Of a DNA stretch of 64,000 nt, positions 41,532 to 44,398 are shown piece after piece. Position 1 is the first letter of the stretch. The number at the start of each line of letters is the position of its first letter. Origin of the DNA: Candidatus Poribacteria bacterium (lineage in GTDB: Bacteria; Poribacteria; WGA-4E; PCPOR2b); NCBI GenBank assembly GCA_965116925.1, contig OZ220744.1:3648001-3712000 (forward strand), read 5' to 3'. The notes under the pieces were generated by a model, which saw nothing but the letters and a program-made list of their open reading frames with translations, searched no databases and was not told where the DNA came from. The position numbers were made by a program, and so were the translations under genes.

Positions 41532-41788
41532 ATTAACACTTATCGGACGTTTTAAGCGGTTTTTAGGGAAAATCTGAAAACCTTGATCCAGTCTCAACAC
41601 GCAAAAAATATATCCGATAACAATCGCAAATCGGTTTCTTGCGGAAAAAGCGGGGCGATTTGCGAAAAATAATGTGCTTTGTTCATATTTTTTCCCTTTG
41701 TGAGGCTTCTTAATTTTTGTGTCCTCGATAAAAATTCAGGAGGAATCTTCGTTGCACTCCGTAGACGTTTCAAAGTTGAGGCAAACTT

Positions 41789-42238
41789 ATGGTACGATCT
41801 ATAGATTGGCTCAGACAGTCCGAAGCTGAATTTAAGGCCGCAACAGATCTTTTAAGTACCAACAACTTTGCGTGGTGCTGCTTCACTGCACAACAATCAG
41901 CTGAAAAGTCAATTAAAGCCATCCTAAACCACCTCCAAAATGATGCGTTAGGGCACAACTTAAATACACTAATTCAGGAAATTGAACAACATTTACAGGT
42001 GGATCAAGCCGTCATTAATGCGTGTATCCGATTAAATCGCTTCTACATTCCGAACGTCTCATCGTCACTCCGATAGAATTGAGAAATGTAGACGATGAGA
42101 CGTTCCCGTTATCCAGATGCCTTTGCAAGCGGTGTTCCCGCTGAACAATACTTTGATCAAGATGCAAATCAAGCGGTTCAAGATGCTGAGGAGGTGCTCC
42201 GTTTTGCGAGAACTATTATCCAACCGACCACACGTTGA
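41789..42238 (+). pseudogene. HEPN-domain protein (toxin of a HEPN-MNT pair) interrupted by a 51-bp frame-preserving insert with stops
   Basis: WCCFTAQQSAEKSIKA...GHNL...LNRFYIP|insert|RYPDAFASGVPAEQYFDQDANQAVQDAEEVLRFA* all in one frame. Confidence 0.88.
42052..42105. repeat. Perfect 15-bp inverted repeat flanking a 24-bp core (candidate intragenic inverton)
   Basis: GAACGTCTCATCGTC (42052-42066) / GACGATGAGACGTTC (42091-42105). Confidence 0.95.
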
Positions 42239-42656
42239 AAAGTTATGGGAATTCGTAGATCGAGTCCTCAAGCAGAAAGGTGACGAGATTGAATTCATCG
42301 TTCTGTATGGTTCTATGGCGAAAGGTAACTGGTCAGTCGCTAGCGATTATGATGTGCTGATCGGACTGTGCATTGATGATGGGAAACGTTTCATAGATCG
42401 GCTCTACGACTATTCGCTACTCACCTCTGCTCCAATCGATATTTTTGCGTACAGCCAATCCGAACTCGATCTCATGTTCAGTAACTTTCATTTGACCCTG
42501 TTAGAATCGCTGAACCATGGGATTGTCCTGTTTGACCGAGGGCGATGGGCGGAGATGCAAAAACAATTCAAGGAATGGAAGACATCGGGCGTGATTGAAC
42601 AGATACCTGTGGGTTGGCGGTTTAAGAAAGAACAAGGAAATATCAGAGATAATTGA
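42204..42656 (+). CDS. Minimal nucleotidyltransferase (MNT) antitoxin
   Basis: LYGSMAKG...SDYDVLI...PIDIF; GAGGAGG RBS before TTG 42204; overlaps the HEPN 3' end. Confidence 0.88.
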   Translation: MRELLSNRPHVEKLWEFVDRVLKQKGDEIEFIVLYGSMAKGNWSVASDYDVLIGLCIDDGKRFIDRLYDYSLLTSAPIDIFAYSQSELDLMFSNFHLTLLESLNHGIVLFDRGRWAEMQKQFKEWKTSGVIEQIPVGWRFKKEQGNIRDN

Positions 42657-42790
42657 CGGTTGAAGAGGCGGTAAAGTTTTTGTCGATATGAACTGAAGTT
42701 AATGTGATTGCTCATTTTGTTTACACACTACGGGGTACGCAAGGCATAGATAGCTTGCATCTTTAACCGATAGAAGGAGTTGCTATTGAG

Positions 42791-44398
42791 ATGACAAAGT
42801 ACATCTTCGTAACTGGTGGTGTAATCTCTGGCATCGGAAAGGGAATAACGACAGCATCGCTTGGTCGCTTGCTCATCGATCGTGGGTTCAAGGTTATGGT
42901 GGTTAAAATTGACCCGTACCTCAACTCGGATGCTGGCACAATGAACCCATTCCAACACGGTGAGGTGTTCGTGACGCGGGACGGTGCGGAAACCGATCTC
43001 GATCTCGGCAATTACGAGCGATTCTTGGGAATTGACCTCAATCAATACTCGAACTTTACAACGGGTTCGGTTTACAATGCGGTCATTGCCAAAGAGCGGC
43101 GTGGGGATTATTTGGGCGGGACCGTGCAACTTATCCCGCACATCACCGATGAGATTAAGGAACGCATCTATCAACTGGGGCGCGATAGCGATGCGGAGGT
43201 GGTCATTACGGAGATTGGCGGAACCATTGGAGATTTTGAGACGCCACCGTTTGTGGAAGCGATTCGACAGATGGCGGTAGAGGTCGGACGCGAAAATACG
43301 ATCTTTATTCATGTTTCGTTAATCTATACTCTTCCCAACGGAGAGAGCAAGAGCAAACCGACCCAACATAGCATCCGTACGCTACAAGAGTACGGTATCC
43401 AACCCGATCTCCTAATTTGCCGCACAAGTCAACCGATGGAGGAAGGAATACGGCAGAAAATTTCACTCCTTTGTGGACTTCAGGAGGAATACATCGTTGA
43501 AGGGCTTGACACCGACCTAGTTGATGAGATTCCACTGAACTTCGAGCGACAAGGCATGGGGCGTTTGGTGATAAAGCGACTTGGGTTAGAAGAACGTCAA
43601 TCGAATGGCGTTGAGTGGGCAAAGATGGTTGATAAACTGAAGCACCCCAAACACCGGACCCAGATAGCGATTGTCGGTAAATATGTCCAAGGTTCTGATA
43701 CCTATCTCAGTGTGAAGGAAGCACTCAAACATGGGGGCATTGCCAACGAATCAGCCGTAGATGTCAAATGGATTGAATCTGACCTACTGAGCGACGACCA
43801 AAACTTGGATGAGGAGTTTGAGGGAATTGATGGGATCCTCGTTCCTGGTGGCTTTGGTTACCGGGGCATTGAAGGGATGATTGTTGCATCACGCTATGCA
43901 CGGGAGCAGAAGATTCCATATTTTGGGCTGTGTCTTGGTATGCAGTGCATGGTGATTGATGTTGCACGGCACGTCGCAAAACTGAAAGGTGCAAACAGTG
44001 CCGAGTTTGACGAGGAAACACCCCATCCGGTGATTGATCTGATGCTAAATCAACGAGAACAGACCGATCTCGGTGGCACAATGCGACTTGGACTCTATCC
44101 GTGCGTTCTCAAGGAAAACACAAAAAGCTATGAGGCGTATAAGCAACCCATAATCTTAGAACGACACCGTCACCGATATGAATTGAACAACGATTATCGG
44201 GAAGCCCTTGCATCCGAAGGGTTGTATTTTAGCGGGGTATCGCCCGACGAGAATCTAGTTGAAATCACTGAAGTTGTTGATCATCCGTGGATGGTTGGCT
44301 CGCAGTTCCACCCCGAATTTCAATCCAAGCCACTTGAACCGCATCCACTGTTCCGTGACTTTATTCGGGCTGCATTACATTATCGGCAGCAGCGATAG
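42791..44398 (+). CDS. pyrG: CTP synthase
   Basis: KYIFVTGGVISGIGKG, GEVFVT, KPTQHS, GLCLGMQ, RHRHRYE, QFHPE. Confidence 0.98.
   Translation: MTKYIFVTGGVISGIGKGITTASLGRLLIDRGFKVMVVKIDPYLNSDAGTMNPFQHGEVFVTRDGAETDLDLGNYERFLGIDLNQYSNFTTGSVYNAVIAKERRGDYLGGTVQLIPHITDEIKERIYQLGRDSDAEVVITEIGGTIGDFETPPFVEAIRQMAVEVGRENTIFIHVSLIYTLPNGESKSKPTQHSIRTLQEYGIQPDLLICRTSQPMEEGIRQKISLLCGLQEEYIVEGLDTDLVDEIPLNFERQGMGRLVIKRLGLEERQSNGVEWAKMVDKLKHPKHRTQIAIVGKYVQGSDTYLSVKEALKHGGIANESAVDVKWIESDLLSDDQNLDEEFEGIDGILVPGGFGYRGIEGMIVASRYAREQKIPYFGLCLGMQCMVIDVARHVAKLKGANSAEFDEETPHPVIDLMLNQREQTDLGGTMRLGLYPCVLKENTKSYEAYKQPIILERHRHRYELNNDYREALASEGLYFSGVSPDENLVEITEVVDHPWMVGSQFHPEFQSKPLEPHPLFRDFIRAALHYRQQR

Follow-up and report, generated by a model that had tools for sequence, protein, structure and literature searches.

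The window analysed here, a 64-kb stretch of a Poribacteria genome, contains an interrupted HEPN-domain gene followed by a gene for a minimal nucleotidyltransferase (MNT-like) and by pyrG (42791-44398, 535 aa; Table 1). A Pfam profile search assigned the N-terminal piece of the HEPN protein to PF05168 (E = 5e-18, profile positions 3-86 of 117), the first open piece running from the ATG at 41789 to position 42073 (95 aa). The HEPN frame then reads ...LNRFYIPNVSSSLR-stop-N-stop-EM-stop-TMRRSRYPDAFASG..., picks up again past an insert as ...RRSRYPDAFASG... and closes at the TGA at 42236-42238; our translation returned the same three in-frame stops as the first-pass annotation of this DNA. Intact HEPN orthologues of 127-136 aa are encoded at 6 loci of the same genus, and the closest solved relatives, TT1696 (1ufb) and TM0613 (1o3u), both contain YIPTRYPDA. 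YIPTRYPD is the most conserved motif of the HEPN family, and the insert sits inside it. The MNT gene, whose likely ATG overlaps the HEPN 3' end and was placed from the conserved MLRRCSVLRELL... stretch, is intact as previously claimed, its length and end being equal to those of its orthologues.

Table 1. Features at the interrupted HEPN locus, in window coordinates
Feature	Position	Strand	Basis
HEPN-domain gene (PF05168), interrupted	41789..42238	+	frame reading, Pfam profile match, intact orthologues
Direct TTCC repeats (42048-42051 and 42103-42106), 55 bp apart	42048..42106	+	direct sequence reading
54-nt hairpin element, Poribacteria hairpin repeat family	42052..42105	+	arm complementarity, RNA fold, covariance models
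51 nt extra relative to orthologues (ACGTCTC...GAGACGTT)	42054..42104	+	aligned orthologous loci (8)
Three in-frame stops (TAG 42074, TGA 42080, TAG 42089)	42074..42091	+	frame translation
Minimal nucleotidyltransferase (MNT-like) gene, full length	42183..42656	+	PF18765, E 4.5e-08; PF01909, E 3.3e-05
Empty pyrG target: GAC Asp codon in ...TGGATTGAATCT GAC CTACTG...	43781..43783	+	comparison with filled same-genus genomes

The insert is built as a hairpin, in which two 15-nt arms (left, 42052-42066, GAACGTCTCATCGTC; right, 42091-42105) that are 100% complementary enclose a 24-nt loop (42067-42090, ACTCCGATAGAATTGAGAAATGTA), in agreement with the perfect inverted repeats and 24-nt core noticed at first pass. 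Folded as RNA, the 54-mer reaches -26.2 kcal/mol (z = -6.3) and none of 200 shuffles was as stable; with as many as 2 mismatches allowed, the only places in the window that match the 15-mer are the two arm positions (0.14 occurrences expected; a count of 2 was reached in 1 of 100 shuffles). Three of the six frames of the element are open, among them the GAA CGT... frame (ERLIVTPIELRNVDDETF) and the minus-strand reading ...NVSSSTFLNSIGVTMRRS..., the latter bearing out the earlier claim that the reverse-complemented core can be read without stops. The HEPN frame is blocked because the element landed in its one stop-bearing sense frame; the protein is therefore cut short at 95 aa and the HEPN gene of the window's strain is an insertional pseudogene. 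The sole short direct repeat flanking the insert is a pair of TTCC tetranucleotides, and slippage between them would remove 55 bp and shift the frame. An intrinsic terminator was considered and rejected, a T-run being absent 3' of the hairpin.

Comparison of filled and empty sites revealed a strict insertion rule. At the HEPN site a GAC lying across the Pro/Thr codons is split after its second base by the 51 extra nucleotides (CCG A^CN), same-genus orthologues reading ATTCCGA-C(A/C/G)CG (hyphen at the insertion point), which encodes YIPTRYPD; there is no target-site duplication, and the 51-nt gap cannot be moved in either direction in the alignment. The insert is missing from 7 of the 8 aligned same-genus loci and from G018 and G005, where the HEPN coordinates are contiguous, giving 9 uninterrupted YIPTRYPD loci. 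The first-pass annotation had proposed a search for such orthologues and had described the 51 bp as a discrete extra cassette whose exact loss would yield the canonical YIPTRYPD protein, a description with which these 9 loci and an uninterrupted allele from a ~98% identical strain (see below) agree. The eighth aligned locus, in G012, is interrupted at exactly the same nucleotide of HEPN by another 51-bp hairpin, seven stem pairs having changed on both sides relative to the hairpin of the window and the ACTCCG loop start being common to both. Each of the six clean filled/empty comparisons (HEPN twice, in G000 and G012; pyrG; an intergenic site of the sister genus g13; an amine-oxidase gene; lpxK) gave +51 nt or +17 aa net, two g13 intergenic sites of G147 having been left out as too rearranged for clean pairing. 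The seventh comparison concerned a copy nested in another, in G144; there the 54-mer occupies the precise position of the GAC of the outer copy. This trinucleotide is replaced or overlapped at 5 of the 7 sites, and the 51 nt gained fall short of the 54-nt unit. At the six sites compared as DNA (both HEPN insertions and the pyrG, g13 intergenic, amine-oxidase and nested copies) duplication is absent; lpxK was compared as protein only. The empty relatives of the amine-oxidase site read AAC or GTA, not GAC.

Covariance models assign the window's copy (82.7 bits with model R1 and 76.1 bits with model R2) to a family whose hallmark is a variable, covarying stem of 13-15 bp around a conserved 24-nt loop (ACTCCGA...ATG.A). 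In the family alignment of 11 sequences, 99.4% of the cells are paired and changes on both sides are seen in every one of the 15 pairs, the outer bases covarying as an inverted repeat between subfamilies (GA..TC, TT..AA, TG..CA, AG..CT). An R2 census of 151 Poribacteria genomes, in which 38 candidates were scored per genome, detected the family in 54 of them. In the sister genus g13 it is present in 47 of 57 genomes and is multi-copy, with up to 36 matches per genome among the 38 candidates scored, and the arm of one g13 subfamily occurs 44, 87 and 65 times in three genomes (control, once in each). In the window's genus, R2 matches were found in 6 of 19 genomes and in G000, one copy each, and the single copies of the 6 genomes are spread over three different sites. 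Neither the arms nor the core have a second occurrence in the 6.47-Mb genome of the window; such a single-copy state is unusual for a repeat. Family copies are located in HEPN, pyrG, lpxK, an amine-oxidase gene and intergenic DNA. The copy of G001, 91-96% identical to that of the window, lies just after a stop codon, at a site whose left flank is conserved in relatives and whose right flank is not comparable. Near-identical copies are carried by four other assemblies, and a scan of genome contigs returned only these already known four; an arm-gap-arm pattern scan of metagenome contigs returned 0 loci. Judged by its sequence relationships, the inverted repeat of the window is one copy of a dispersed, putatively mobile hairpin family and is foreign to the HEPN gene.

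These relationships also bear on whether the insert could be an artefact of assembly or synthesis, which the arms might suggest in that they hold CGTCTC/GAGACG, two type IIS (BsmBI) sites facing inward, and which the breaking of De Bruijn contigs inside the element might suggest as well. We consider an artefact virtually inconceivable, given that the insert stands in the same context in contigs from three DNA sequencing runs of three studies (X1, X2 and X3, the last a 678-nt contig), that the four other assemblies contain near-identical copies, and that the contig breaks are accounted for by pyrG-context copies of the element, which X1-X3 also hold. The BsmBI sites are a coincidence, since other family members, in G012 and g13, lack them.

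The pyrG gene of the window is free of the element, whereas those of G002, G015 and G017 carry in-frame copies that are 91-96% identical to the window's and use the open GAA CGT frame, reading ERLIVTPTEL..VDDETF; the G017 pyrG ORF comprises 558 aa, and alignment places 17 extra residues at the GAC site of the window. On the pyrG tree the three filled genomes do not form one clade, and two 100/100 branches force 3 changes. A single gain was rejected by the AU test (p = 1.67e-07, for a filled group that was named after a first FastTree tree had been seen), and repeated same-site insertion or scar-free loss must therefore have occurred. Together with the filled/empty comparisons, these data demonstrate that the element belongs to the family, is polymorphic for presence and absence, obeys the fixed +51 rule and recurs at the same sites.

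The first-pass annotation had read the locus as an intragenic invertible switch, in which a recombinase flips the 24-bp core between the stop-laden OFF form and an ON form encoding a 149-aa HEPN protein. The perfect inverted repeat and the stop-free flipped reading are in keeping with this idea, and intragenic invertons that create premature stops do exist, one of just 57 bp being on record (PMC10028968). The accompanying caveat that the core is very short stands as to size, but it weighs less than had been assumed in view of that 57-bp example. The proposal is nonetheless not supported, as the inverted-repeat unit is an inserted family member and not a native part of the gene, and as its orientation is constant in all 5 orthologous sets examined (13 copies) and in the contigs of X1, X2 and X3, all of which show the as-is orientation only. 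Moreover, the element in general can be read in reverse without stops, and the ON form would place a 17-residue insert amid YIPTRYPD. Consistent with the earlier remark that no invertase is encoded in the window, none of its 47 ORFs of at least 110 aa matches a recombinase or transposase family. Mapping to three alleles (as is, core flipped, 51 bp deleted) had been suggested as a check; carried out on contigs only, it recovered the as-is allele in X1-X3 and neither of the other two forms. This read evidence consists of Logan contigs, which drop rare variants, so a minority flipped or excised allele could remain in the population, and a rare flipped subpopulation would be compatible with the contig-level data. 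Stretches that lack contig cover in X3 and X5 were left out of account. Nothing indicates that the loop flips, and we regard an invertible switch as very improbable.

The other half of the earlier reading, an excisable cassette, is possible though unproven. In its strong form, the element would excise precisely and often enough to restore HEPN in a subpopulation, acting as a phase switch of the excision type on a toxin-like gene. The lack of target duplication makes exact loss chemically feasible, and several observations would suit such a reversible lock: the patchy occupancy of the one pyrG site calls for a minimum of three gains or scar-free losses, the occurrence of one copy per genome at three sites in 6 same-genus genomes is as expected of cut-and-paste hopping, and the MNT gene of the window is still whole. 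An uninterrupted HEPN allele (ATTCC-CACGCGC-TATCC) also exists in a strain ~98% identical to that of the window, as seen in an RNA-library contig (X5). However, X5 represents the allele of another strain and not an excision product, because three wobble positions beside the site differ, and no contig in X1-X3 corresponds to the window's allele minus 51 bp. The tree is explained equally well by repeated gain, and the module of G012 went on to decay, its MNT gene being frameshifted as well, which fits decay after HEPN loss.

A further point against a reversible lock is that the status of HEPN as a toxin is not established. HEPN toxins reportedly carry an R-x(4-6)-H RNase motif, whereas reading of the intact 132-aa HEPN orthologue found no H located 5-7 residues after an R, and the HEPN protein has no NCBIfam or PADLOC match. 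The MNT partner scores 23.5 bits against NF047752 (MntA_antitoxin; cut-off 60) and matches only the general PF18765 and PF01909 domains. The earlier designation of the pair as a toxin-antitoxin module is thus at odds with both HepT/MntA hallmarks, and we hold frequent excision of the element from HEPN to be rather unlikely.

Rescue at the RNA level, by removal of the hairpin from the mRNA or by ribosomal bypass, would allow full-length HEPN still to be made. Bypass has a precedent in the hopping on T4 gene 60, the window offers a strong hairpin of ~50 nt in which a stop closely follows the entry point, and the same element is tolerated in the essential pyrG gene. On the other hand, the pyrG, lpxK and amine-oxidase copies lie in an open frame and need no bypass, and neither the window nor the G012 variant has matching take-off and landing codons that would restore the RYPD frame. 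The only RNA-library contig across the site represents the allele of the other strain, which lacks the insert, rather than a spliced form, and an Rfam search of 41900-42300 found nothing near gathering score, the best match being a plant miRNA model (19.1 bits versus 84). Rescue of this kind is, in our judgement, extremely improbable.

We therefore favour, with good confidence, the view that a small non-coding mobile hairpin inactivated the HEPN gene by adding 51 nt at a GAC without duplication, leaving MNT whole. According to this view, the element would have landed at a GAC in the conserved YIPTRYPD motif, moved in trans by a putative enzyme that recognises the hairpin together with the conserved loop. 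Insertion, and perhaps excision too, would be scar-free, a single-strand route of the HUH type being one guess, and the net length of 17 codons may be what lets copies survive in pyrG and other essential genes. Y1 (PF01797) genes do occur, with 5 matches in G000 and 4-7 in each of five other genomes, and none lies near any of the listed copies; the DNA between two nearby copies in G098 contains ordinary genes only and no transposase. In a non-exhaustive look at the g13 arm pattern in three genomes, matches were mostly paired 38-39 nt apart, and no clear pair with kb spacing, which might mark a full-length parent IS sharing the element's ends, was seen.

A bolder version of the mobile-hairpin reading, which we put forward tentatively and which may well prove too broad, is that the family constitutes an undescribed class of ultra-small, scar-free mobile hairpins. 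Its members would be recognised by the loop and would choose GAC; since they always add 17 codons, they would never shift the reading frame. They would have entered (and perhaps left) the same codon of pyrG and HEPN independently in different species, would exist as a single hopping copy per genome in one genus and as dozens in another, and could form a removable block on a toxin-like gene. Among the papers listed by a literature search, none dealt with such palindromic or transposable elements in Poribacteria. The family offers a compact test case, in that its units of 51-54 nt add strictly 17 codons without duplication, recur at identical nucleotides in separate lineages and are read through in essential genes. 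It points to a precise, hairpin-directed insertion chemistry of a putative enzyme and shows one route by which proteins of sponge symbionts gain loop insertions. What had looked like a switch inside a toxin gene is selfish-DNA damage and therefore should not be counted as phase variation.

How does this family compare with known systems? A classical MITE with target duplication, even of 1 bp, was rejected because the 51-nt gap is unslidable and the flanks are not direct repeats; of the features that define DDE-type MITEs, terminal inverted repeats are present and target-site duplication is absent. Elements of the IS200/IS605 type bear distinct subterminal hairpins at the left and the right end and integrate 3' to a tetranucleotide, which is retained. 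The family resembles them in the lack of target duplication, the possibility of exact excision, the putative recognition of a hairpin and an insertion point fixed beside a short target, and Y1 genes are present in these genomes; it differs in having a single hairpin, in apparently overlapping or replacing a GAC and in that no copy-linked Y1 gene was found.

With REPs and REPINs, GTAG- and CGTC-tagged REPs included, the family shares short hairpins that in g13 number in the tens per genome, some of them intragenic, with stems that differ by subfamily and a suspected trans-acting enzyme. CGTC-tagged REPs are described by Di Nocera et al. 2013 (PMC3733652) as having an 8-9-bp stem, a 4-5-nt loop, a terminal tag that stays unpaired and a CCA tail. 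Assignment to this group was rejected, as the window's stem measures 15 bp (13-15 bp in the family), the loop has 24 nt and CGTC is paired; CGTC is missing altogether from the G012 and g13 copies, and the conserved part is the loop rather than a tag.

Intragenic invertons, like the element studied here, are short segments flanked by inverted repeats within a gene that create premature stops in one orientation, and they lie in the gene in all strains, with both orientations coexisting (Chanin et al., preprint PMC10028968). By contrast, the whole unit is missing here from orthologues, belongs to a dispersed family and has a single orientation wherever seen.

The family also behaves much like intragenic palindromic repeats such as the Rickettsia palindromic elements (RPEs; MITE review PMC10969869), which are selfish palindromes within unrelated coding genes that are translated where their frame is open; copies of the present family are likewise read through as extra residues in pyrG, the amine-oxidase gene and lpxK. 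RPEs are about 150 bp long according to the review, compared with 54 nt (net +51) for the element here. Further differences from RPEs are the fixed net length, the absence of duplication, the conserved loop with variable stems and the single copy per genome in the window's genus; moreover, the window's copy lies in a stop-bearing frame and breaks its gene.

The HEPN frame in the window runs past ...LNRFYIP into NVSSSLR*N*EM*TMRRS (asterisks, stops) and afterwards continues with RYPDAFASGVPAE... up to its TGA, the interruption being a 54-nt hairpin (see the table). The first-pass annotation had described a perfect inverted repeat with three in-frame stops here, and every observed detail of it, from the arms and the stops to the stop-free reading of the reversed core, proved accurate; the frame of the element that begins GAA CGT is likewise open. 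With up to two mismatches allowed, the 15-mer arm has two matches only in the window (0.14 expected), and the 54-mer folds at -26.2 kcal/mol (z = -6.3), with 0/200 shuffles as good. Neither the arms nor any core 14-mer occurred again in the 6.47-Mb one-contig genome (G000), and a loop-motif hairpin scan of that genome found the window copy alone. Inward-facing BsmBI sites (CGTCTC / GAGACG) lie in the arms at 42055-42060 and 42097-42102; we take them as chance, since they are absent from other family members.

A DNA search of 40 relatives located the HEPN-MNT locus in 15 of the 19 other same-genus genomes. The 51 bp are missing from seven of the eight loci whose HEPN alignment covers the site, which read ...ATTCC(G/A)A^C(A/C/G)CG(T/C)TAT... 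and encode YIPTRYPD, and contiguous match coordinates show HEPN to be uninterrupted also in the relatives G018 and G005, bearing out the earlier view of the 51 bp as an insert foreign to HEPN. Intact HEPN proteins of 127-136 aa are encoded by six of the uninterrupted loci. The 51-nt gap cannot be slid either way and there is, therefore, no target-site duplication; the insert is bracketed by a single direct repeat, TTCC (42048 and 42103), and slippage between its two copies would drop 55 bp with a frame shift. In G018 (C1:534296-535634), a different species, some 1.3 kb of additional DNA stands between the halves of the HEPN-MNT match, which overlap by 5 bases of the query; an insertion sequence has probably entered the same module there.

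The element had been proposed to be an invertible ON/OFF switch or, alternatively, an excisable cassette. Evidence from sequencing runs came from Logan contigs, in which rare variants are dropped, so that frequent variants are limited by them and rare ones are not. DNA run X1 gave a 573-nt contig from 41700 to 42104 with zero differences, so that the orientation with respect to the left flank is fixed, and X2 an equivalent contig. X3, from a different study, gave a contig of 678 nt over 42047-42700, in which the insert is as-is, and another of 146 nt across the left junction. Contig breaks inside the element are due to the pyrG-context copies in the same samples, as the loose ends are pyrG flanks. 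A 323-nt contig from the RNA library X5 skips 42052-42109 and has CACGCGC between, reading ATT CCC ACG CGC TAT (IPTRY); three wobble differences beside the site and ~2% differences elsewhere identify it as another strain's uninterrupted allele, and we rejected a spliced or excised form on these grounds. Neither a flipped core nor the window allele minus 51 bp was seen in the contigs of X1, X2, X3 and X5, from which rare variants drop out. Intragenic invertons are real, down to 57 bp (PMC10028968), but they are native gene parts with both orientations present, whereas the window element is foreign to its gene and showed one orientation in the contigs. The flip switch was not borne out. As for the cassette, the uninterrupted same-genus loci confirm that it is inserted, and it is possibly excisable.

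The gene order around the element is kdsB-like, an unknown gene, HEPN, MNT and pyrG, and none of the 47 window ORFs of at least 110 aa encodes a recombinase or transposase. A perfect 10-bp inverted repeat (41624-41633 / 41656-41665; TCGCAAATCG / CGATTTGCGA; 22 nt apart), possibly an operator or else a small hairpin, lies upstream of HEPN, about 125-165 bp from its start. The first-pass annotation had also labelled the pair a toxin-antitoxin module. MNT is full length in the window (it is frameshifted in the relative G012, whose HEPN is broken too). Against the toxin-antitoxin label, an intact HEPN orthologue has no R-x(4-6)-H stretch by eye and the MNT partner scores 23.5 bits versus an MntA cut-off of 60. 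The HEPN protein had no match in NCBIfam and PADLOC, and its closest solved relatives (TT1696, TM0613 and a Sulfolobus protein), whose function the depositors left unnamed, all contain YIPTRYPDA. A HEPN toxin with MNT antitoxin is plausible by analogy. Beside its own HEPN hairpin, the G012 locus (L013) has a tandem duplication of 27 bp close to the 3' end of HEPN and an MNT frame break (...DYDMLIWTVY*); the module as a whole appears to be in decay there.

The search of relatives also revealed 54-mer copies (91-96% identity) in pyrG of G002, G015 and G017, and the copy of G001 lies two bases past the stop codon of a PhyH-like gene. At exactly the nucleotide of the window copy, G012 carries a different 51-bp hairpin that has GAA.GTC, the ACTCCG loop start and an ATG near the loop end in common with it and seven stem pairs altered on both sides. 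A covariance model from six copies recovered only those six in 20 genus genomes, one per genome, and over 151 Poribacteria genomes it detected weaker relatives in another family, with unrelated stems and the same 24-nt loop (ACTCCGA start, A(A/T)G.A end). In an 11-sequence family alignment, 99.4% of stem cells are paired and double changes occur in 15/15 pairs, which 0/500 shuffles reach. A second covariance model placed the family in 54 of the 151 Poribacteria genomes: in 47/57 of the sister genus g13, with up to 36 hits each among 38 candidates scored per genome, and in 6/19 of the window's genus plus G000, with a single copy in every one. Three genomes contain one g13 arm sequence 44, 87 and 65 times (reversed control, 1 each). 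By these comparisons, the hairpin in the window HEPN is a member of a family of mobile hairpins. The orthologous intergenic copies of G147 (L087) and G073 (L088) have A-T in one and C-G in the other at a stem pair, a compensated change indicating that arms co-evolve in place. Two 3050-nt stretches of G078 (C2:324-3373 and 393624-396673; L040, L041), 100% identical and in inverse orientation, each contain a family copy; they reflect a large inverted duplication or else a duplicate made in assembly.

The pyrG copies are in open frame (ERLIVTPTEL(M/R)(D/N)VDDETF) and add 17 residues, giving WIES[...]MLGEDQN; the window, with an empty pyrG (without the hairpin) at GAC 43781-43783, reads WIESDLLSDDQN. 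On a pyrG tree of 1229 columns, insert columns left out, G002 (filled) paired with G019 (empty) and G017 (filled) with G012 (pyrG empty), both at 100/100, and forcing the three filled genomes together cost 111.9 log-likelihood units (AU p = 1.67e-07, the filled group having been chosen after sight of the first FastTree tree). Transfer of a pyrG segment is ruled out by the flanks of G017, which are like those of its sister G012 and unlike those of the other filled genomes. Arms are identical among the three pyrG copies and the window HEPN copy and loops are 1-3 letters apart, with pyrG genes 8-14% different in the same comparison. This pattern, taken with the finding that a single HEPN nucleotide holds different family members in two genomes, points either to insertions recurring at strongly preferred sites or to loss without a scar. 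In G001 (L011) and G007 (L015), pyrG is 12 nt shorter than other empty alleles in exactly the loop that takes the hairpin in filled genomes (WIESDDQN versus WIESDLLSDDQN), a difference for which an ordinary indel and a scar left by imprecise loss are both conceivable.

Features of the interrupted HEPN gene and filled/empty comparisons of the hairpin family
Feature	Position or site	Strand	Details
HEPN-domain gene	ATG 41789 to TGA 42236-42238	+	PF05168 in first 95 codons, E 5e-18, profile positions 3-86 of 117
Extra 51-nt piece	42054-42104		between GA and C of a GAC
Hairpin arms	42052-42066 and 42091-42105		100% complementary; 24 nt between
In-frame stops of HEPN within element	42074, 42080, 42089		
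HEPN, G000	CCGA^C		+51 nt
HEPN, G012	same CCGA^C as G000		+51 nt
pyrG	CTGA^C		+51 nt; 7 empty loci, two 12 nt shorter in this loop
g13 intergenic site			TTAACC...GGTTAA copy in place of GTC of four relatives (GAC in element orientation)
g13 amine-oxidase gene			54 nt in place of three letters (AAC or GTA) of relatives
G144 nested copy (L110, amine-oxidase gene)	~1500-2100; exactly at outer family copy's GAC, stem/loop junction		AGAACC...GGTTCT, 54 nt
lpxK			17-residue gap in two relatives

A unit of 54 nt with a net gain of 51 nt is the same arithmetic in every clean filled/empty comparison, and no target duplication was seen across them, excluding classical DDE cut-and-paste with duplication. 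In five of the seven, the element overlaps or replaces a GAC; for the window subfamily, retention and replacement of the target are indistinguishable because the element ends (GA...C) are the same as the target letters. At the G001 site, ...TAGCCGA is kept in relatives on the left and the right side is rearranged. A net gain of 17 codons never shifts the frame, and three of the six reading frames of the element are open, which explains the survival of copies inside pyrG, lpxK and the oxidase gene; the HEPN copy lies in a stop-bearing frame and breaks its host gene.

The window HEPN is an insertional pseudogene. It was produced by a member, present here in one copy, of a family of very small hairpins that insert precisely, and the interest lies less in the HEPN gene than in the rule of +51 nt without duplication and in the recurrence at the same sites. 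A search reaching part of the literature found no paper on such elements in Poribacteria. CGTC-tagged REPs have stems of 8-9 bp, loops of 4-5 nt and an unpaired tag (PMC3733652), a geometry that the window element does not share, and RPEs, the classic in-frame palindromic insertions, are ~150 bp (PMC10969869), versus 54 nt for the hairpin family. Y1 genes gave five hits in G000, none linked to a hairpin copy, and HUH elements have two end structures whereas the hairpin family has one hairpin. In behaviour, single-strand HUH transposition, with its hallmarks of no duplication, exact excision and hairpin recognition, is the nearest fit to the family.
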